From a virus, in the IMG/VR virus record IMGVR_UViG_3300021138_001972, positions 23,335 through 87,334 of that record: a stretch of DNA of 64,000 bases. The stretch is one strand, 5' to 3'. Below the pieces are notes generated by a model, which searched no databases, was not told the origin of the DNA, and saw only the letters and a list, made by a program, of their open reading frames with translations. Made by a program: the position numbers and the translations under genes. This document shows positions 3,583 to 58,879 of the stretch, piece after piece (position 1 is the stretch's first letter; the number at the start of each line of letters is the position of its first letter).

Positions 3583-4785
3583 ATGAACAAGATATATCTA
3601 CTATACCATAGCCTATTTCAAGGCGTGCCAAGTTTAAACTGGCTACCCGCTCATATCGAGATGGATGGTACTGAATTACACGAGGGACTCTGTCACGATC
3701 CTCTGTTTGAGTTCAAGGACATATCTAAAGTCGCTTCGCAAGATAACTGGTTATATGAGCTAAACTATTTTTTCACACCTCAGGATTTTACAGATGACTG
3801 TACCATACTAGATAGAATAGTACATGATCAAAAATTAATGGAAGGTTTGCATCAAGGCAAGGGCAAAGTCTTGGTCAATCTCATGCATGAAGGATATTTT
3901 CCAGAACTCGTTGAACAGATGATTGGATTCTTACGCAGCAAAAACATACCGGATAATGCAGTGATATGCGCGTCTGGCGCTGCCAATGCGGCAGACATAT
4001 TCCCTGCACGAGGTATGATATACCAGACTATTTCAACTAGATATTTTGAAAGCAGAAGCACTAGATGGATAAAGTGGGGAAATTTCTCTAGACAGCTTCG
4101 ATCAAATGTTTCACGTAGATTTATCTGTTTCAATCGGCGTTTTCGATCACACAGATTACAGTTATTGGCATATCTACATGAAGCAGATGTGTTAGACCAA
4201 TTCTATATAAGTTTTGGTCGCAGCGTGGAGGGTCTGGATGCCAAGCAGAGCGCAAGAGATTTTTGTAGAGATTTACCAGATGTGGAAAAAGTGATTAAGA
4301 ACATTGATGCACTGTATGATAGATTGCCTTTCATCTTGGACAACAGTGTGTTAGATTACAATCTAGTAGATGAACACTTCAACAAAAACGTATTGCAGCT
4401 ATATGCAGATAGCGGTATCAGTGTCATTTCAGAGACTCTGTTCCACACAGATTCCATCTTCCACTCAGAAAAAACCTATCATCCCATGCGCTATTGCCAA
4501 CCTTTCATAATGGTCAATGCATCAGGCAGCTTAGCAACATTGCGCAGGGACGGTTATCGCACGTTTGGCGATTTCTGGGATGAAAGCTACGACGATATCA
4601 AGGATCACCATGCACGCATGCAGGCTATCATACAGCTGATTAAAGAAATAGCAGCTTGGTCAGATTCAAAATTTAAACAGTTTTTGATAGATAGCAGAGA
4701 GATCTGTTTGCACAATCTTCGCCTGCTTGAATCATGCCACGATCGCCTTGATTATATTGCTGATATTTCTAAGATATTTGATTAA
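3583..4785 (+). CDS. uncharacterised GT-like phage protein (paralog 1)
   Basis: CFNRR..HR, SETLF..SEKTYHPM..QPFI, GYRTFGDFWDESYD motifs shared with 7912-9123 and 11137-12396; AT-richer and on the opposite strand to its neighbours. Confidence 0.7.
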   Translation: MNKIYLLYHSLFQGVPSLNWLPAHIEMDGTELHEGLCHDPLFEFKDISKVASQDNWLYELNYFFTPQDFTDDCTILDRIVHDQKLMEGLHQGKGKVLVNLMHEGYFPELVEQMIGFLRSKNIPDNAVICASGAANAADIFPARGMIYQTISTRYFESRSTRWIKWGNFSRQLRSNVSRRFICFNRRFRSHRLQLLAYLHEADVLDQFYISFGRSVEGLDAKQSARDFCRDLPDVEKVIKNIDALYDRLPFILDNSVLDYNLVDEHFNKNVLQLYADSGISVISETLFHTDSIFHSEKTYHPMRYCQPFIMVNASGSLATLRRDGYRTFGDFWDESYDDIKDHHARMQAIIQLIKEIAAWSDSKFKQFLIDSREICLHNLRLLESCHDRLDYIADISKIFD

Positions 4786-6725
4786 ACTAATTTCAGCTGC
4801 GCTTTGCCAAAGTTTCGGCGCCTTGCGTAGTATATGTTCTGCAGAAACACCTGCAGAGACATGGTACGATCTTCTGGAAAATCCACCACGTATGCATCAT
4901 ATCTATTAGACAGCGGTTGATCTGATATGACATGATCCAAGAGATTGCTGTCAGTATGCAACTGCATAGGGTACAGTGTGATACGGTCATATCGCACCAC
5001 ATAGGCCTCGGTAATCTTTCTCAGATCCAGCAAGGGCCTGATCATGTTTCCAGTGGGCAGAGCAGGCTCAAGCAGGTGTCCATATGTTTCTTCAACGTAC
5101 ATCTCCACAGCTGAGCAATACCTATGGTAGCTGCGGTCAGCATGCATGCGTAGATTGCTAAGATGTATGAGATTCCATCCATGTATCCTAACCCCAGCTA
5201 TTGGATCAACTGAGATGCTGCCAGTGGTCATCCAGCTGCGATATGCGTCCATAACAAGATCTCGTTCACTGCGCCACCAGGCTGCATTCTGTTCAAGCCA
5301 TGTTTGGAATCCAATGTAGAATTCCTCGTAGCTTACAGCGCATGCCTTGCGCAAGAACCTACTATACCATTGGCTGATGCCATTGATGTGCCAGGTGTTG
5401 ATGAACCAGCTGAACTCTTGGCAAGACAGCATGTTGTCAAGAGGCAGGTCTCGAGTGCTGGTCACTACTTCCACACCTTCTAATATAGCATCGCCCTCAT
5501 CGTTGCCACTAAGATAATCATATACGGTAATGCTTGTGATGCTATTGGACTCACGCTGTGTGAGATTCATCTCAGCATTCTCCAACAGCTGTGCTTGGAA
5601 GAATTCTATGCCGCTGTGTTGATTGATCTCCAACAGGCCCCAGACATTTCTACGCCAACTGTCTACAGTCTCACCAGGTAAGCCCAGTATCAGTTCGGTG
5701 TTGACCGTGATGCCTTCGCGTTGGCACAGATCAAACACCTCGTTCAGCCGATTGATCTCTAGGTTCTTGCGCTTTATCTCACCGAGCACATGGTCGTCTA
5801 GGCTCTGCACGCTCAGAGTTAACCCATTGTTGAACCCGCGAGCAGTCAGCTTCTTGGCCAGCTTGACCACATCTGCCTTTTGGTTCTTGGCCCAACTGAG
5901 CCCCATGCGACGCGGATAGCCGAATCGATCCTGCGTCCCTATGACTTTCTCCACTATTAGATTATCGCGTTCGATGAACATGCCAAAGTTGGCATCTGTG
6001 ATGCTCATCCAATCGCACTCATGCTCGCCCATCCACTCTATCTCTGCAAACACCCGCTTGAGATCAAACTGCTTGACCTTGTTGTAGGTGAGGCTGCCCC
6101 AGTCACAGAAGGTGCACTGATAAGGGCAACCTCTGTTGGTCTCCAACGTGGCATTCCAAGTTACCGTGGGATTGTCAGCCATGATGCCATCAAACACGCC
6201 TGTGGTATAGGGGCTGGGGATCTGATCCAATCGGTCTATGCGCACTGCTGTGCCAGTGTCTACCACACGACCTTGGTCGTTCAGCAGCAGGCCTCTGACC
6301 GTGGGCAAAGCACCATGGTGCAGCAGATCAGCAAACGCTACCTCACCCTCCTTCTTGACCACTGCGTCAATGAAAGGATAGTGTTGGAATATGTCTGTGC
6401 TTTCCACGGGAGGTTCTGGTCCACCAAACACGATCTGGCAACGAGGATTATAGTCCTTGATCCTGCGAGCCAACTGGTAGTTGTAGCTTTTGTTCCAGAT
6501 GTAGGTGCTGAAACCTATTGTATCACAGTCTGCCAGCTGCTTGTACACAGATTCTATGGGATCGCGTCGCCACACCAGCTGGTCCAGATGCCAGCGTTCG
6601 GTGATCAGGCTCATCCGGCTGGCGTAGGCCCACAGCACGCCTGCGCTGTAAGGTAGGTAGTAGGCATTTAACTCGCGCGGACCCTGTGCGAAATTTGGCT
6701 GCACAAGGTTGAGCCTGCGTGTCAT
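4782..6725 (-). CDS. cobalamin-dependent radical SAM enzyme
   Basis: N-terminal B12-binding region (FSTYIWN..VFGGPEP..KEGE); ETNRGCPYQCTFCDWG; ELILGLPGET. Confidence 0.9.
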   Translation of the reverse strand: MTRRLNLVQPNFAQGPRELNAYYLPYSAGVLWAYASRMSLITERWHLDQLVWRRDPIESVYKQLADCDTIGFSTYIWNKSYNYQLARRIKDYNPRCQIVFGGPEPPVESTDIFQHYPFIDAVVKKEGEVAFADLLHHGALPTVRGLLLNDQGRVVDTGTAVRIDRLDQIPSPYTTGVFDGIMADNPTVTWNATLETNRGCPYQCTFCDWGSLTYNKVKQFDLKRVFAEIEWMGEHECDWMSITDANFGMFIERDNLIVEKVIGTQDRFGYPRRMGLSWAKNQKADVVKLAKKLTARGFNNGLTLSVQSLDDHVLGEIKRKNLEINRLNEVFDLCQREGITVNTELILGLPGETVDSWRRNVWGLLEINQHSGIEFFQAQLLENAEMNLTQRESNSITSITVYDYLSGNDEGDAILEGVEVVTSTRDLPLDNMLSCQEFSWFINTWHINGISQWYSRFLRKACAVSYEEFYIGFQTWLEQNAAWWRSERDLVMDAYRSWMTTGSISVDPIAGVRIHGWNLIHLSNLRMHADRSYHRYCSAVEMYVEETYGHLLEPALPTGNMIRPLLDLRKITEAYVVRYDRITLYPMQLHTDSNLLDHVISDQPLSNRYDAYVVDFPEDRTMSLQVFLQNIYYARRRNFGKAQLKLV

Positions 6726-18707: not shown

Positions 18708-18736
18708 TTGACAGCACTAGATCCACGTGCTAGTTT
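18708..18736 (+). promoter_or_regulatory. sigma70-type promoter of the sigma gene
   Basis: TTGACA-17 bp-TAGTTT. Confidence 0.6.
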
Positions 18737-18797
18737 ACCGCTAGCTGAGGTATATCACATCAGGTTTGGTATGAGTATGACAAGGGACAACACACAT

Positions 18798-20279
18798 ATG
18801 GCAAAAGCAACAACCAAAGCAAAAGCTCCAAAAGACACCAAGGTCAAGGTCACTGCAGACAGTGGATCGCAGGATCCTGTACGCTTGTATCTCAGGGAAG
18901 TGGGCAAGACTCCACTGCTGAACCATGCCAAAGAGATTGAGATCAGCAAAAGCATCGAGAGCAGCAAGCAGACCATCATGGACACGCTGTTTGCAGTGCC
19001 CATGACTGTGCAGACCATCGATGCTTGGATTGGAGAGATCCAACGGGGCGATAAAGCAGTTGACACTGTGTTTGATCTGGAAGGCGACGAGGATGGCAAT
19101 CTCAGCAGCGAGCTGGATGCACAGCTATCACATGTGCGAGAATTGTGTGCACAGTATCTGTCAGACACCAGCAAGAAAGCAGCCAAGGACGAACTGATTG
19201 CTGCTTTTAATGAACTGCATCTGCTGCCCGCCAGCATTGGTACCATCATGGAACGGCTACAAGAGACCAACAGGCGATTGTTGGAAGGCGACGGCGCTCT
19301 CATGCGCTTGGCCATGGACGCAGGAGTTGACCGCAGCGAGTTCCTGGACAAGTATGTGGGACATGAGCATATGTCGTGGCTGCAAGGTACCAAAGGCAAG
19401 GGCTGGGACAAGCTTAAACACAAAGCCAACGAGATTGGCAACTGGGTTGGCATGATGCAGGAACAGGCTGATTCAGCTGGACTGCCGGTGGGCGAGCTGC
19501 GCACAGCTGTGCGTGTGTTGCGCCATCAGAGCAAGGTCAAGGATGAAGCCATAGCTGCTATGACCAAGGCCAATCTGCGCTTGGTGATCTCAGTGGCCAA
19601 GAAGTATAACCAAAACAGCAATAACGGCGGGCAGCTGCTGGATCTGATCCAAGAGGGCAACATTGGCCTGCTCAAAGCAGTGGAGAAGTTCAAGTGGCAG
19701 CTGGGCTATCGTTTCTCTACCTATGCCACCTGGTGGATCAGACAGGCCATCATCAAGGCAGCCACAGAATCCAACAGAACAATCAGAATCCCGTCGCATG
19801 TGTTGGACACGCTCAAGAAGATACAGAAGGCCACCAAGGAGCATGTGTTCGTCACTGGGCATGAGCCCAGCGTGGAAGAGCTAGCCAAGATGCTGAGCTG
19901 TGATGTGGACAAGATCAATCGCACGCTGCGAGTGGCCAAGGATCCCATCTCCCTGGAGACGCCCGTGGGTGACGAGGAAGAAGGCAAGCTAGGCAATCTC
20001 ATCGAAGACACTGAAAGCGAGAATGCCTTTGAACAGATTGCCAAGGCAGAGATCACTGAGGTCATAGGTGATGTGCTGGAAGGGCTGAGCAGCAGAGAAG
20101 AGCGTGTGCTGCGCATGCGCTTTGGCATTGGCACCATGCGAGAGTACACCCTGGAAGAGATCGGCAATCGCTTCAATGTCACTCGCGAGCGCGTGCGGCA
20201 GATCGAAAACAAGGCATTGGAGAGATTGAAGAATCCTCAGCGGGCTCGCGACCTGCTCAGTGCTATCACCGACCAATGA
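18798..20279 (+). CDS. rpoD: RpoD-like primary sigma-70 factor lacking region 1.1
   Basis: DPVRLYLRE (1.2), ANLRLVISVAKKY, DLIQEGNIGL, FSTYATWWIRQAI, RTIRIP, PISLETP, TLEEIG..VTRERVRQIE; start ATG 18798 after AAGGGA. Confidence 0.9.
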   Translation: MAKATTKAKAPKDTKVKVTADSGSQDPVRLYLREVGKTPLLNHAKEIEISKSIESSKQTIMDTLFAVPMTVQTIDAWIGEIQRGDKAVDTVFDLEGDEDGNLSSELDAQLSHVRELCAQYLSDTSKKAAKDELIAAFNELHLLPASIGTIMERLQETNRRLLEGDGALMRLAMDAGVDRSEFLDKYVGHEHMSWLQGTKGKGWDKLKHKANEIGNWVGMMQEQADSAGLPVGELRTAVRVLRHQSKVKDEAIAAMTKANLRLVISVAKKYNQNSNNGGQLLDLIQEGNIGLLKAVEKFKWQLGYRFSTYATWWIRQAIIKAATESNRTIRIPSHVLDTLKKIQKATKEHVFVTGHEPSVEELAKMLSCDVDKINRTLRVAKDPISLETPVGDEEEGKLGNLIEDTESENAFEQIAKAEITEVIGDVLEGLSSREERVLRMRFGIGTMREYTLEEIGNRFNVTRERVRQIENKALERLKNPQRARDLLSAITDQ

Positions 20280-43543: not shown

Positions 43544-44416
43544 ATGCGCATGCTTGAGCTACTTGAACACACTGATGACCTAGACGAAGCCAGCTTGCGA
43601 GACCTTGCCAAGGCTGGTGTCATAGGCGCTGGCCTCATAGGTGCAGGATTAGGTGCCAACAGCATGCTAAGCAAGGCACCTGATCCCACGGCGATCACAC
43701 AACCAGCTCAGGCTGTGAAAACTGCCCCTTCGTCTGATGCAGTGGACAAAGCACAGCACCAGGCAGAGCCTCAAAAGGCACAGAATAATCCAAATTTTCC
43801 AGCTGAGCTCAAGGGGTTAGATAGCAAGGATGCCAAGACACGCGTCAGCACCTTTGCCCGGGTGGTGCTGCCTTTGATAGACGCTGAGAACGCGGAGATA
43901 CGCAAGCAACGCCAAGCATTGACACAGCTGAGCAAGCAGAAATCACTGACCAAGGCACAGGCAGATTGGCTGGAAGGCATGCGTGAATACTACAAGGCAG
44001 ACAGCCTGCAGGATCTGCTGGCCAAAGTAGACATTGTGCCACGCAGCATGGCACTAGCACAAGCAGCAGTGGAAAGCAGTTGGGGGCAGCAGCCTCTGGC
44101 ACAGCAGGCCAACGTGTTCTATGGCCAAAAGACTTTTGATCCAGAGGCACCCAGTGCCACAGGTCAGTACGGTGAGAAGTATCGTGCGTTTGATAGTCCC
44201 CAAGACAGCGTGCGTGCCTACATGCGCAATCTCAACACGCATCCTGCTTATGAACCATTCAGGTCAGCCCGAGCAGAGCTGAGATCCAAGAACCGGCCAC
44301 TGCAGGGTGCACAGTTGGTCAAGAGCCTGGGCAGCTACAGCACCAAGGGTGGTTATGGTCAGCAGCTGCACAGCATCATACAAGGTCGTGGTCTGAATAA
44401 ACTTGACACCAATTGA
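43544..44416 (+). CDS. Bax-like glucosaminidase (GH73) peptidoglycan hydrolase
   Basis: LAQAAVESSWG, N.FYG, Y..NLNTHPAY..FR, YS..Y; leaderless ATG after TAAATA. Confidence 0.8.
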   Translation: MRMLELLEHTDDLDEASLRDLAKAGVIGAGLIGAGLGANSMLSKAPDPTAITQPAQAVKTAPSSDAVDKAQHQAEPQKAQNNPNFPAELKGLDSKDAKTRVSTFARVVLPLIDAENAEIRKQRQALTQLSKQKSLTKAQADWLEGMREYYKADSLQDLLAKVDIVPRSMALAQAAVESSWGQQPLAQQANVFYGQKTFDPEAPSATGQYGEKYRAFDSPQDSVRAYMRNLNTHPAYEPFRSARAELRSKNRPLQGAQLVKSLGSYSTKGGYGQQLHSIIQGRGLNKLDTN

Positions 44417-44437
44417 TCACCTGCCTATCATTGGTGC

Positions 44438-44746
44438 ATGACAGACAAACTCAGTGAACTGGAACGTTGGGAAAAGCTGCGCAATCGAGCCATGGATCGC
44501 GGCTTCATAATGAACGTGGACCGACACAAGATTACCATGGCCCCCAGCGTGCTCAAGGTGCTTGATCACAGCAAGCGTGGCGCAGTGTCCTTCCTCAGCT
44601 TGGAAGAAGTAGAAAGCTGGTTGGACGGCTATGATTGGATGCTGGCACATGCCACCGGCATGGGATTCAATATCAAAGTAGCTGAAAAAGATGCGTATGA
44701 CCAGTGGGATCAGCATCGTATTCTCAGGGTTCTCAGCAGCGATTAA
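44438..44746 (+). CDS. hypothetical protein, leaderless from a sigma70 promoter
   Basis: TTGACA(44403)-17-TATCAT, then ATG 6 nt later. Confidence 0.65.
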   Translation: MTDKLSELERWEKLRNRAMDRGFIMNVDRHKITMAPSVLKVLDHSKRGAVSFLSLEEVESWLDGYDWMLAHATGMGFNIKVAEKDAYDQWDQHRILRVLSSD

Positions 44747-44776: not shown

Positions 44777-44806
44777 TTGACGTTTATCACACAGGCTGTA
44801 TAAATA
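44777..44806 (+). promoter_or_regulatory. composite promoter of the tRNA-array leader
   Basis: TTGACG (44777-44782) and TG-TATAAATA (44797-44806), 4 nt before ATG 44811. Confidence 0.7.
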
Positions 44807-44810
44807 ACTC

Positions 44811-44963
44811 ATGATGACAACATTCGCGCCTAAATCAACCAGCTTTACACAGCAGCACAGCTATCAAGCCATGCCCAATACCATTTGGCTGGCAATAGCT
44901 GGAGTCCAGCTCTGTGGCTTAGATCGCGGCGTGGAATTGCCAGCAGAGGGGTGTAGAGGATAG
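44811..44963 (+). CDS. putative attenuator leader peptide (50 aa, all 20 amino acids)
   Basis: MMTTFAPKSTSFTQQHSYQAMPNTIWLAIAGVQLCGLDRGVELPAEGCRG*; 3' end overlaps an antiterminator; not in the ORF track. Confidence 0.75.
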   Translation: MMTTFAPKSTSFTQQHSYQAMPNTIWLAIAGVQLCGLDRGVELPAEGCRG

Positions 44964-45003
44964 TGTAGCAGCCAAAAGCAGCACAATTATTCCAAAACAC
45001 CCC
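44948..45003 (+). promoter_or_regulatory. antiterminator hairpin
   Basis: GGGGTGT (44948-44954) pairs with ACACCCC (44997-45003); GGATAGTGT pairs with ACAATTATTCC; excludes the terminator stem. Confidence 0.7.
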
Positions 45004-45030
45004 CAGAATCGAAAGATTCGGGGGTTTTTT
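45000..45030 (+). terminator. intrinsic terminator (attenuator)
   Basis: CCCCC-A-GAATC-GAAA-GATTC-GGGGG followed by T6. Confidence 0.9.
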
Positions 45031-45039
45031 ATTGGTGTG

Positions 45040-45248
45040 AAGCGGGACTGATAATCCAGCTGTTGATCGCCGAGTGTGGTACATGGGGAAACGTGGTCCT
45101 CGCCGGGCACTATAAACTTCTGGCAAACGGGCGGCCCTGGTGATGGAATCCCTTGTGTGGGACTAAAAACCCAGGTTGATAGACAAGCGCATTGGCCACG
45201 ACGTGGTGATCGATGATGCGCTTCTCTATCCGTTGCGGCAACACAACG
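45040..45248 (+). ncRNA. structured non-coding RNA candidate
   Basis: consecutive hairpins GCCGGG/TCTGGC, CCTGG..TCCC/GGGA..CCAGG, GATAGA..AAGCGCAT/ATGCGCTT..TCTATC; no ORF. Confidence 0.45.
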
Positions 45249-45251
45249 TAT

Positions 45252-45327
45252 GCTCCCATCATCTAGCGGCCTAGGATATCCGCCTTTCACGTGGAACACA
45301 CCGGTTCGAATCCGGTTGGGAGCACCA
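45252..45327 (+). tRNA. tRNA-Glu(TTC)
   Basis: full cloverleaf, TTCGAAT loop, CCA. Confidence 0.95.
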
Positions 45328-45342
45328 TTCTTGGAGACACAC

Positions 45343-45546
45343 ATGCAGGGATATCTGATCATAAACACCAATGAGCAAGGCACGGTGACCACATACACAC
45401 AATTTAACATGGCTGTGTGGACACATGTGATCAACGAGATATTAGAGCAGCGTCCAGATATCTGTTTTGAGCAAAGCGAATCACCAGATCCCAGCGGACG
45501 CTATTGTGGGATAATAGAAACTTTTTGGCGCATAACTCAGTGGTAG
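45343..45546 (+). CDS. hypothetical protein; its stop lies inside tRNA-Ile
   Basis: GGAG RBS, ATG 45343. Confidence 0.45.
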   Translation: MQGYLIINTNEQGTVTTYTQFNMAVWTHVINEILEQRPDICFEQSESPDPSGRYCGIIETFWRITQW

Positions 45547-45600
45547 AGTACTGTCCTGATAAGACAGAAGTCGTTGGTTCAAATCCAACTGTGCCAACCA
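45526..45600 (+). tRNA. tRNA-Ile(GAT)
   Basis: full cloverleaf, CCA. Confidence 0.95.
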
Positions 45601-45653
45601 AGTAAATAGGTTAATTAGTAAACAATACCTATCACGTGCGGGAGGGCACACAC

Positions 45654-45968
45654 ATGAAATACCTAGTACCATTGCTGCTGATCAGCAGCACTGCCGTGGC
45701 AGAAGACAGTGTTTCACGCTGTGCCGGCGCTGACAAGATATTTCCCTATCTGAACCAGCAGTACGGCGAGATAGCATTCGCAGAGTTTCTTGATCCGCAG
45801 AATCACCACATGGTCATGTTGGTGAGCCCCAAGACCAGCACATGGACAGTGCTGATGGAGGAGACCACAGACCACTTCTGCGCAGTGGCAGCTGGCACCA
45901 AATTTGAGCCTGCTGACCAGAAAAAGTTTGAGAAATACCAAGACAAGAAGCCAGAAATACCAGGTTGA
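45654..45968 (+). CDS. small secreted protein
   Basis: signal peptide MKYLVPLLLISSTAVA, two Cys, GGAGG RBS. Confidence 0.7.
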   Translation: MKYLVPLLLISSTAVAEDSVSRCAGADKIFPYLNQQYGEIAFAEFLDPQNHHMVMLVSPKTSTWTVLMEETTDHFCAVAAGTKFEPADQKKFEKYQDKKPEIPG

Positions 45969-45975
45969 TCATCAA

Positions 45976-46182
45976 CGGGAGAGCTGGACGGAAACTCCAG
46001 CTGTGACTCAACGTCGCTGTTGAGCTCCCGCCCAGTTTGAGCTAGCGGTAGAAGGATCACAGCCCGGCCATGACCCGGACATCTGTGTGAACCACGGCGA
46101 TGCTCATCAATCTTGGACCAGCGGTAGAGGCAGCGCAGCGCATGGCTCTGAACCACAGCGGGTGCGCACACGGCTGGTCCAA
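45976..46182 (+). ncRNA. structured RNA candidate(s)
   Basis: three-way junction 45976-46030, then two stem-loops sharing AGCGGTAGA and TGAACCAC. Confidence 0.45.
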
Positions 46183-46190
46183 ACCCAGAT

Positions 46191-46264
46191 GCCGCCTTGG
46201 TTCAATGGTAGAACGCGAGTTTGTGGAACTCGACACAGTGGTTCAATTCCACTAGGCGGTACCA
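46191..46264 (+). tRNA. tRNA-His(GTG), no encoded G-1, A73
   Basis: full cloverleaf, CCA. Confidence 0.95.
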
Positions 46265-46410
46265 ACAAGGCAAGATCCCAGAGGCCCCATAGGCAGCTGT
46301 AGGGGATCGCTGCGCAGGCGGGACGGGGGCCGTGCGTGGGTGAGCACCATTGACGCAGCTCACATAGGCATTATCATGTAAGACATTTTGATAATCAGCA
46401 CAGAGGTAAC

Positions 46411-47019
46411 ATGCCAAATCTAGTTCCAGTGGTAGTAGAAAAGGAAGCCGGCGGCGAACGCAGCTATGACATCTTCAGCAGATTGCTCAAAGATCGCATC
46501 ATCATGTTAGACACAGACGTGAGCGAGCACAGCGCCAGCTTGATCGTGGCCCAGCTGCTGTTCTTGGAGAGCCAAAGCCCCAAGAAAGACATCTACATGT
46601 ACATCAACAGCCCAGGTGGCGTGGTCACAGCTGGCATGGCCATCTATGACACAATGAATTTCATCAAACCAGACGTGTGCACCATAGTCATGGGACAGGC
46701 CTGCAGCATGGGCAGCTTATTAGCCACAGCAGGCGCAGCAGGCAAGCGTTACATGCTGCCCTACGCACGCCACATGATACATCAACCTAGTGGTGGTGCT
46801 CGTGGTCAGGCCACTGACATCCAGATCCAGGCCCGTGAGATACAGAAGATGAAGACTTATCTCACTGAGATCTACGCCAAGCACAACACAGCTGGCAAGA
46901 CCTTTGCAGATCTCAGCGCTGACATGGAACGCGACTTCTTCATGAGCGCAGAAGAAGCGCTGGCCTACGGCTTGATCGACAAGATCATTGCCAACAGAGA
47001 CAGCATCACAGGCGAGTAA
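46411..47019 (+). CDS. clpP: ATP-dependent Clp protease proteolytic subunit
   Basis: [45 protein letters not shown]. Confidence 0.97.
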
Positions 47020-48353: not shown

Positions 48354-48578
48354 ATGAATAAAGAACTTGATGAATATCGTCAGTCAAATTATGATGACAC
48401 ATCATCAAATCCTCACAAGCTGAAAACAGTGATTTCTCCAACTAAACCAGGATCTGGTTGGGTGGAAGTGACACCAGACATTGTAGCAAAATTAGAAATT
48501 TCTACAGTTAATATCAGAAATGCAGTCAAGAAACTCAAAGATATAATGACAAATACCGTTACGTATCCTGCTCATTAG
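48354..48578 (+). CDS. hypothetical protein
   Basis: TATAAATA, GAGG RBS, AT-rich ORF. Confidence 0.55.
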   Translation: MNKELDEYRQSNYDDTSSNPHKLKTVISPTKPGSGWVEVTPDIVAKLEISTVNIRNAVKKLKDIMTNTVTYPAH

Positions 48579-48655
48579 CACCCGTATGCCGCCTGGCTTC
48601 GAACCAGGAGAAAGCTAATGGAATCATGGGGGTTCGAGTCCCTCCGGGTGCGCCA
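48578..48655 (+). tRNA. atypical tRNA-Arg(TCG) without a canonical D-arm
   Basis: intact acceptor, anticodon and T arms with GCCA; only TATGCCG in place of the D-arm; long variable region. Confidence 0.7.
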
Positions 48656-48799: not shown

Positions 48800-48836
48800 G
48801 GTTGACAGCATGTGAAAACGTGCTAATGTGAGACAT

Positions 48837-58761: not shown

Positions 58762-58879
58762 GCGGATGTAGCTCAGTGGTAGAGCGCGACCTTGCCAGAA
58801 CACATTGTTGCACCCTAGTGCATGTTAAGGTGTGTTCCGGAAGGTTGATGTCGAGGGTTCGAATCCCTTCGTCCGCTCA
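58762..58879 (+). tRNA. tRNA-Gly(GCC) with a 44-nt insertion in the anticodon loop
   Basis: both halves intact; insert 58798-58841; 3' end TCA, no full CCA. Confidence 0.75.

Follow-up and report, generated by a model that had tools for sequence, protein, structure and literature searches.

The DNA analysed here (the window) makes up the final 64 kb of a viral contig of 87,334 bp, IMG/VR record IMGVR_UViG_3300021138_001972, which derives from a very large phage, given its CheckV completeness of only ~17%. At the head of a tRNA gene array on the plus strand, the window carries a module in which a promoter, a 50-codon open reading frame (ORF) that begins at the predicted transcription start, an antiterminator hairpin and an intrinsic terminator are arranged in series. 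We give about even chances to the interpretation that this module is a leaderless ribosome-mediated transcription attenuator sensing general translation capacity; judging from the sequence and its conservation, the phage probably makes more tRNA when ribosomes slow. Attenuation had been proposed in an earlier note on the same DNA (the original prediction). The promoter, the open leaderless frame, the stop codon within a conserved antiterminator arm and the lack of promoters in front of the first tRNAs agreed with that proposal, while its further idea of selection for a pan-codon ORF proved only suggestive.

Relatives of the module were collected by using the family of the 102-aa protein encoded upstream, a metagenome family with 60–97% identity, as an anchor, which retrieved 20 metagenome loci. 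The complete module, from promoter to terminator, was present in five further distinct sequences, L006, L007 (=L008), L010, L021 (=L022) and L020, and partial copies were found at the contig ends of L011, L013 and L014, of which the last two do not differ where they align. These relatives came from freshwater and lake metagenomes, and the module shared 80–98% nucleotide identity with them. All ortholog comparisons were based on six distinct full-length DNA sequences, namely the window and the five complete relatives.

The promoter was present as originally described, with TTGACG separated by a 16-nt spacer from TG-TATAAATA and with both boxes conserved. Among the relatives AGGCTGTATAAATA was invariant, except for TATAAGTA in L020, while the 5′ half of the spacer varied in sequence at a constant length of 16 nt and the discriminator varied too. 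Because the boxes are fixed while the spacer sequence changes at constant length, the element appears to work as a promoter, and by this conservation the promoter before the ORF is real. It was not listed by a simple scanner because the last base of its hexamer is A.

The TG-TATAAATA element is followed by four bases and then by ATGATG, and TATAAA ends exactly 6 nt before the ATG. Because of this 6-nt distance, the predicted +1 position is the A of the first ATG, and we infer that the transcript starts at or next to this base. The start region ATGATGACAA was invariant in the relatives, and an ATG at the predicted +1 position offers a credible translation start for a short ORF at the 5′ end of a transcript. 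The same geometry was found in the upstream gene for the 102-aa protein, in which the −35 box, the −10 box, exactly 6 nt and the ATG were retained in 14 relatives, even where the DNA farther upstream was unrelated, and in which no Shine-Dalgarno site was seen in any of the 14. This gene is clearly coding, with ratios of nonsynonymous to synonymous divergence (dN/dS) of 0.13–0.27 and substitution events of 71/49/141 at the three codon positions. In nine other long ORFs of the contig, one of them encoding 1796 aa, TAAATA or TATAAT is followed after 5–7 nt by ATG with no Shine-Dalgarno site. Because the 102-aa gene and these nine ORFs share such an arrangement, leaderless starts seem to be the norm for this phage, and its lineage appears to make leaderless mRNAs regularly. 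A weak promoter-like sequence, TTGCCA-16-GATAGT (44937–44964; 9/12), was judged incidental; it recurs in all relatives, probably because it lies inside the invariant block that contains the antiterminator 5′ arm.

At the other end of the module, the strong intrinsic terminator claimed by the original prediction was found, so that a Rho-independent terminator stands between the ORF and the downstream genes. It has the form CCCCC-A-GAAUC GAAA GAUUC-GGGGG followed by U6AUU (TTTTTTATT), with an energy of −15 to −17.6 kcal/mol in the window, and it escaped a simple scanner because of its bulged A. The stem covaries among the orthologs, occurring as CCCCC.A.GAATC/GATTCGGGGG, CCCCGGGAATC/GATTCCGGGG and CCCTCAGAATC/GATTCTGAGG. 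A scan of the 64-kb window for hairpins (≤ −9 kcal/mol) with a T-rich run returned this terminator as the single site on the plus strand and three sites on the minus strand, and no other canonical intrinsic terminator was found by a permissive scan in the tRNA array of ~19 kb. As the only plus-strand terminator of the window, it would be the last canonical stop that transcripts of the array meet once they have passed it.

The competing structure is formed by the end of the ORF. In nascent RNA folded to 45004–45016, GGGGUGU pairs with ACACCCC under a 3×4 internal loop, above which GGAUAGUGU pairs with ACAAUUAUUCC. This antiterminator was the minimum-energy fold of the nascent RNA in 6/6 orthologs; as isolated hairpins, the antiterminator ranged from −19.4 to −23.1 kcal/mol versus −13.9 to −17.9 kcal/mol for the terminator. 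The two structures are mutually exclusive because both use C45000–45003, that is, four of the five basal G-C pairs of the terminator. Freeing the terminator C-run in the nascent RNA would cost 11.9 kcal/mol versus 1.3±1.5 kcal/mol in dinucleotide-preserving shuffles of the sequence upstream, none of which reached the observed value (0/300), and the pairing advanced in the original prediction was therefore borne out. In the full-length RNA the two states differed by no more than ~2 kcal/mol. Pairing in the lower antiterminator helix was 100% in all orthologs, and its partner changes, A44997G and C45003T, are compatible with wobble pairing. The stop codon of the ORF is inside the invariant 5′ arm of the antiterminator, so that a ribosome at this position, with a footprint of the usual size, would mask this arm.

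Structure was also seen in the 5′ half of the transcript, where L020 accounts for all three compensatory pairs, a number reached by 2/500 shuffles, and the single-stranded 5′ end AUGAUGACAA is invariant. An alternative 9-bp helix (44888–96/44936–44), which appeared in the single-sequence minimum-energy fold, was set aside on inspection of the alignment, in which the changes in L020, L010 and L021 did not support it.

The ORF bears on whether a ribosome would take part. The frame of 50 codons with the same TAG was retained in 6/6 distinct DNA orthologs, and the other five reading frames contained 1–5 stops in every ortholog. When the substitutions were placed at random, the frame stayed open with a probability of 0.69 for L007, 0.63 for L010, 0.56 for L021 and 0.26 for L020. 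Among the rows listed, insertions and deletions within the ORF were multiples of 3 nt only, and 1-nt events occurred just outside it. A 3-nt deletion at 44917/8 was present in contigs from four runs, and in the peptide alignments P0030 had gained one codon and lost one, while P0031 and P0032 had each lost one. The ORF product, predicted by gene callers in many metagenome contigs, falls into five 90% clusters of 48–50 residues; all 15 distinct full-length peptides had 48–50 residues and ended in the C-terminal motif ELP[A/T]EGCxG. This peptide set is biased, being found only where the frame is open, and the DNA set anchored on the neighbouring gene is free of that bias.

The peptide sequence itself has been free to drift while the frame was preserved, as an attenuator would allow. 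Neither a third-position excess nor dN/dS well below 1, the marks of purifying selection on an amino-acid sequence, was found: substitution events fell on the three codon positions in the proportion 13/19/23, without the periodicity of the neighbouring gene, and pairwise dN/dS was 0.2–1.7, reaching at least 1 among some close relatives. Variable residues had undergone radical replacements, such as T/Q/P at residue 10 and Q/V/L/G/K at residue 14. These three observations argue that selection acts mainly on something other than the peptide sequence. Synonymous divergence (dS) of the ORF was 0–0.16 (0.36–0.59 to L020), compared to 0.6–2.5 or saturation for the neighbouring gene in matching genome pairs, and because it is so far below that of the neighbour, the RNA itself is under constraint. 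An open frame, a drifting peptide and a constrained RNA would together make the pattern of a regulatory leader ORF within a switch and would fit a functional small protein poorly. From the leaderless geometry shared with the 102-aa gene, the single open frame and the 3-nt indels, the ORF is likely to be translated.

The composition of the ORF is a separate matter. A recount agreed with the original prediction that its 50 codons include 38 distinct ones and encode all 20 amino acids, with all four codons used for Ala, a different codon at each of the four Leu positions, three codons each for Pro and Gly, and with ATA, AGA and TTA present. There was no enrichment of codons for one amino acid tied to the regulated genes, the orthologs having 38–41 distinct codons of 50, and Ala accounted for 5/50 residues without obvious enrichment. 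The comparison with 50-codon windows of the contig's real genes that had been suggested (n = 2243) showed at least 38 distinct codons in 0.3% of windows, all 20 amino acids in 4% and both together in 0/2243. The fair null is unselected sequence of local composition, in which 34.2±2.3 distinct codons are expected, with probabilities of 0.078 for at least 38, 0.003 for at least 41, 0.05 for all 20 amino acids and 0.009 for at least 38 codons together with all 20. The codon diversity of the ORF is thus only moderately unusual.

The six orthologs had 38, 38, 41, 41, 39 and 38 distinct codons, and in all six the 20 amino acids were complete within the first 42 codons. Of the distinct full-length peptides, 14/15 contained all 20 amino acids, P0029 being without Ile, and in L020 the sole Asp had disappeared from codon 38 and one had arisen at codon 32. 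It is possible, but in our view doubtful, that completeness and codon diversity are maintained by selection and that the ORF serves as a test track for all tRNAs. Selection for completeness is not separable from a by-product, because the sequences share ancestry and constraint on the RNA already covers the blocks that hold most single-copy residues. In sum, the ORF length, the codon diversity and the overlap of the ORF with the hairpin were conserved among relatives despite peptide drift, as had been anticipated; of the expected hairpin covariation, that of the terminator stem was found and that of the antiterminator amounted to two wobble changes.

The genes that follow the terminator are mainly tRNA genes (Table 1). 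The array on the same strand comprises 28 tRNAs recognized by ARAGORN and 2 by Rfam; the original count of ~31 same-strand tRNAs is thereby lowered to ~30, and the array itself was confirmed. In 4/5 resolvable contexts (the window, L006, L007 and L020) the module is followed by tRNAs within ~230 nt. No sigma-70-like promoter was detected between the terminator and the first tRNAs in any of these four, although phage-specific promoters may escape such a scan.

Table 1. Features of the module and its surroundings, in window positions.
Feature	Position	Strand	Details
Promoter TTGACA-17-TATCAT, 6 nt, ATG of conserved 102-aa gene (44438–44746)	44403..44746	+	Context; leaderless control
−35 box TTGACG	44777..44782	+	GGTTGAC invariant in 9 relatives
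Extended −10 region TG-TATAAATA	44797..44806	+	−10 read as TATAAA, 44799–44804
Putative leaderless leader/sensor ORF	44811..44963	+	ATG 44811, TAG 44961–63, 50 sense codons
Antiterminator hairpin	44948..45003	+	5′ arm GGGGUGU-AGA-GGAUAGUGU 44948–44966; 3′ arm ACAAUUAUUCC-AAA-ACACCCC 44983–45003
Intrinsic terminator	45000..45033	+	10-bp stem, bulged A, GAAA loop, U-tract
Conserved structured spacer, terminator to first tRNA	45036..45251	+	216 nt, 79–89% identity in L006 and L020
First downstream unit	45252..46264	+	ARAGORN and Rfam
tRNA-Glu(UUC)	45252–45327	+	ARAGORN and Rfam
tRNA-Ile(GAU)	45526–45600	+	ARAGORN and Rfam
104-aa ORF with Shine-Dalgarno site	45654–45968	+	
tRNA-His(GUG)	46191–46264	+	ARAGORN and Rfam
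Next sigma-70-like promoter TTGACG-16-TATCAT	46350..46377	+	Before ClpP-like gene; same place in L006 (1387) and L020 (4343)
ORFs 5–7 nt after TAAATA/TATAAT	260, 29070, 43544	+	
ORFs 5–7 nt after TAAATA/TATAAT	37567, 23060, 18417, 12938, 62579, 56011	−	

Taken together, these features suggest the following mechanism. First, RNA polymerase would start at or next to the A of the ATG, so that the transcript begins with the start codon of the 50-codon ORF. Second, the emerging GGGGUGU...GGAUAGUGU would pair with ACAAUUAUUCC...ACACCCC and lock four of the five C's of the terminator base; the default outcome would be readthrough into the structured spacer, tRNA-Glu, tRNA-Ile and tRNA-His, and readthrough could extend further into the array because the window has no other plus-strand terminator. 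Third, a ribosome that keeps pace and reaches the stop codon would cover the 5′ arm, whereupon the terminator would fold and transcription would stop. Fourth, a ribosome delayed at initiation or within about the first 42 codons would leave the antiterminator intact. This direction of switching, with termination when a ribosome is at the stop and readthrough when it lags, fits the geometry of the sequence elements. The module would thereby report the overall translation capacity, slow decoding leading to more transcription of phage tRNAs. As there is no hairpin of the 1:2 type, loss of translation should also give readthrough, unlike in trp.

The original prediction, made without a search, knew of no described system of this kind. 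As a claim of novelty this was wrong, because the whiB7 leader is a precedent and leaderless leader peptides are known too. The mycobacterial whiB7 5′ leader has a long and diverse upstream ORF (uORF), with 19/20 amino acids in M. smegmatis, and a Rho-independent terminator; efficient translation results in termination, and translation stress results in an antiterminator and readthrough (bioRxiv 10.1101/2023.06.02.543512). Its inducers include the depletion of many amino acids, tRNAs and synthetases as well as ribosome-targeting drugs (bioRxiv 10.1101/2023.06.02.543512). The switching logic of whiB7 is identical to that proposed for the phage module. However, whiB7 is a cellular gene for a transcription factor with an Ala-enriched uORF, whereas in the phage module, which has no obvious Ala enrichment, the tRNA cargo would supply the very thing that is sensed; there is no sequence relationship between the two.

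Classical attenuators, such as trpL, hisL, leuL, thrL, ilv, pheL and pheM (pheST), have leader peptides of 14–32 codons with a Shine-Dalgarno site, runs of cognate codons and a 1:2 anti-antiterminator, and the absence of translation leads to termination. The phage module resembles them in having a promoter, a short ORF and mutually exclusive antiterminator and terminator structures between which the position of the ribosome would choose. Compared to these systems, however, its ORF has 50 codons, is leaderless, contains no codon run and has near-maximal codon diversity, the 1:2 hairpin is missing, and readthrough rather than termination is predicted without translation.

Leaderless leader peptides have been described in Deinococcus deserti (PMC4007540), as have leaderless poly-Cys uORFs in mycobacteria (bioRxiv 10.1101/834739). 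In both, as proposed here, transcription starts at the AUG of a short ORF that precedes and regulates the target genes; unlike the phage ORF, they are short, favour a single amino acid and act on cellular synthetase or biosynthesis genes rather than on phage tRNAs. The toiL uORF of E. coli (topAI-yjhQ) senses many ribosome inhibitors (PMC12121999), and ARE-ABCF resistance genes such as vmlR are controlled by uORF attenuators (PMC9226507). These uORFs are likewise general sensors of stalling at several positions that relieve premature termination. In contrast to the phage module, their inducers are antibiotics and their targets resistance or toxin genes, and toiL acts via Rho and translation initiation. 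The trn L-array of Anabaena, a supernumerary tRNA array that is turned on when translation is impaired, is under the control of the repressor TrcR, which acts on direct repeats in the promoter (PMC8421152; PMC10272220). It shares the logic of demand-driven tRNA supply but relies on a protein repressor, with no leader ORF and terminator. A full-text literature search returned no paper in which a leader ORF attenuates tRNA genes or a phage tRNA array.

Several observations weigh against attenuation of the tRNA array. First, several tRNAs further down have consensus promoters directly in front of them; of the internal promoters that the original prediction listed as a possible limit on control, those at 46350, 47028, 49294 and 57781 were recovered by the scan and the one at 48802 was not. 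Second, in L021 the module is located between two radical-SAM genes and not before tRNAs, and recombination breakpoints are found directly after the U-tract, with at least three spacer types among relatives; because of this context and these breakpoints, the module behaves as a portable cassette. Third, covariation support for the antiterminator itself is weak because the helix is invariant apart from its two wobble-compatible changes, and no anti-antiterminator of the 1:2 type was found, the consensus fold offering no upstream partner for the 5′ arm. Fourth, 50 codons is long for a leader peptide, and nucleotides 43–83 and 99–160 of the transcript are near-invariant, which is more than a simple attenuator needs. 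These blocks may reflect a function of the RNA in trans or the binding of a protein, and with its strong terminator the module could simply be a self-contained transcription unit.

The most serious alternative, which we regard as unlikely without dismissing it, is a stand-alone small RNA gene that makes an abundant trans-acting transcript of ~220 nt, possibly with a dual function as RNA and peptide, the hairpin beside the terminator belonging to the structure of this RNA and the ORF being incidental or secondary. Such a gene would account for the module's own strong promoter and terminator, for a nucleotide conservation far above that of the neighbouring genes, for the invariant single-stranded 5′ end and the long-range helices with their three compensatory pairs, and for a cassette that moves among varied contexts with breaks just behind the U-tract. 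Trans-acting small RNAs derived from attenuators do exist, rnTrpL being an example (PMC6614838). However, a constitutive 3′ end would be opposed by the stable, invariant helix in which the RNA ties up the base of its terminator, and the open frame, the ATG at the predicted +1 position, the 3-nt indels and the stop codon in the competing arm would all have to be coincidences. Nor did the RNA match any Rfam family.

Conditional termination could instead be imposed by a protein, a tRNA or a small ligand, in the manner of a riboswitch, T-box, PyrR, TRAP or LicT, with the invariant 5′ domain or the antiterminator as the binding site. In its favour, antiterminator and terminator are genuine and conserved alternatives, the long invariant blocks are typical of binding cores, and the downstream spacer is also structured RNA. 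We nevertheless consider ligand control improbable, as it does not explain why the frame is preserved, why indels are of 3 nt, why the ATG has a leaderless position or why the stop codon falls in the 5′ arm. In addition, a search of Rfam 15 over 44777–45251 with E values up to 10, which covers the T-box and amino-acid leader families, gave only a trivial 36-nt terminator-like match. The tmRNA, RNase P, 6S, T-box and GOLLD/ROOL families were considered and dropped for want of an Rfam match, and so was a LicT-type RAT site, whose resemblance is superficial.

An ordinary gene for a 50-aa phage protein with its own promoter and terminator, the peptide being the functional product, is highly improbable. 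The predictions by gene callers, the conservation of the middle block QHSYQAMPNTIWLA, where some changes are synonymous, and the frequency of leaderless genes in this phage are all compatible with it. Against these stand the substitution pattern, with no codon-position periodicity, dN/dS of at least 1 among close relatives and radical replacements at variable sites; a synonymous-site constraint beyond what coding alone explains; and a codon diversity atypical of this phage's genes. The peptide matched no family in Pfam or PHROGs, and a profile search against 1.84 billion representatives returned only the known cluster and two repetitive junk proteins. An AlphaFold2 model from a 6-sequence alignment of the peptide gave no confident fold and was uninformative (pLDDT 51, pTM 0.12). 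Finally, the explanation that ORF and pairing both arose by chance, in an intergenic stretch closed by the terminator of the upstream operon, retains almost no probability: the feature was noticed post hoc, and 8% of random 50-codon ORFs of local composition have at least 38 distinct codons, but this explanation is already largely refuted by a module conserved well beyond its flanking genes, with conserved promoter boxes, a covarying terminator, a frame open in all relatives and a competing helix that no shuffle matched.

Additional searches defined the distribution of the module. In IMG/VR it occurred in only 1 other contig, 100% identical to the window, and pattern scans of genome contigs did not find it. 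DNA matches in an annotated phage collection were confined to tRNAs, with no match for the 102-aa protein. Two runs labelled metatranscriptomic were flagged as probably DNA, and nothing was drawn from their contigs, one of which extends from 44812 through the terminator into tRNA-Glu and tRNA-Ile, and another of which includes the promoter and upstream DNA.

Further observations were made in the surrounding DNA. The spacer behind the terminator contains 7 compensatory pairs among three sequences, and its first hairpin (~45042–45062) consists of a 7-bp stem, which covaries, and a 7-nt loop, YUGAUAA, which is invariant and resembles the tRNA-Ile(GAU) anticodon loop. In L007 and L021 the place of this spacer is taken by a non-homologous one with a covarying hairpin of its own. 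Between tRNA-Glu and tRNA-Ile there are ~200 nt with a 67-codon ORF (45343–45546) in the window and 9 nt in L006. The two tRNAs missed by ARAGORN and found by Rfam are at 48578–48652 and 58762–58877, the latter spanning 116 nt with an insertion of ~44 nt. A ClpP-like protease gene (46411–47019; PHROG 94, E = 9e-46) with its own conserved promoter lies within the tRNA array. In L021, the most distant relative, the module is placed (3965–6306) between a gene for a 468-aa radical-SAM/SPASM-like protein and a radical-SAM-like ORF with a CNLSCPGC motif. A 523-aa ORF on the plus strand (18708–20279) matched PHROG 351, an RpoD-like RNA polymerase sigma factor (E = 3e-95), and the many TTGACA/TATAAT promoters of the tRNA region may be served by a sigma-70-type factor that the phage itself encodes.

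Phage tRNA arrays are usually discussed as compensation for codon usage or as spares against tRNA-cleaving host defences. If attenuation is correct, a sensor of translation capacity would act in cis on tRNA genes and let a phage adjust its tRNA supply in a closed loop; ribosome-mediated attenuation, known for amino-acid and resistance genes, would then reach tRNA genes as well. The module is compact (~260 bp), mutations in it give clear and opposite predictions, and it also draws attention to the widespread leaderless gene starts in this phage lineage. If, in addition, the ORF were a test track for all tRNAs, the depletion of any charged tRNA by starvation, anticodon nucleases or tRNA-targeting defences would stall the ribosome and turn on the phage tRNA supply, and the module would then be a demand-driven, self-correcting counter-defence circuit.

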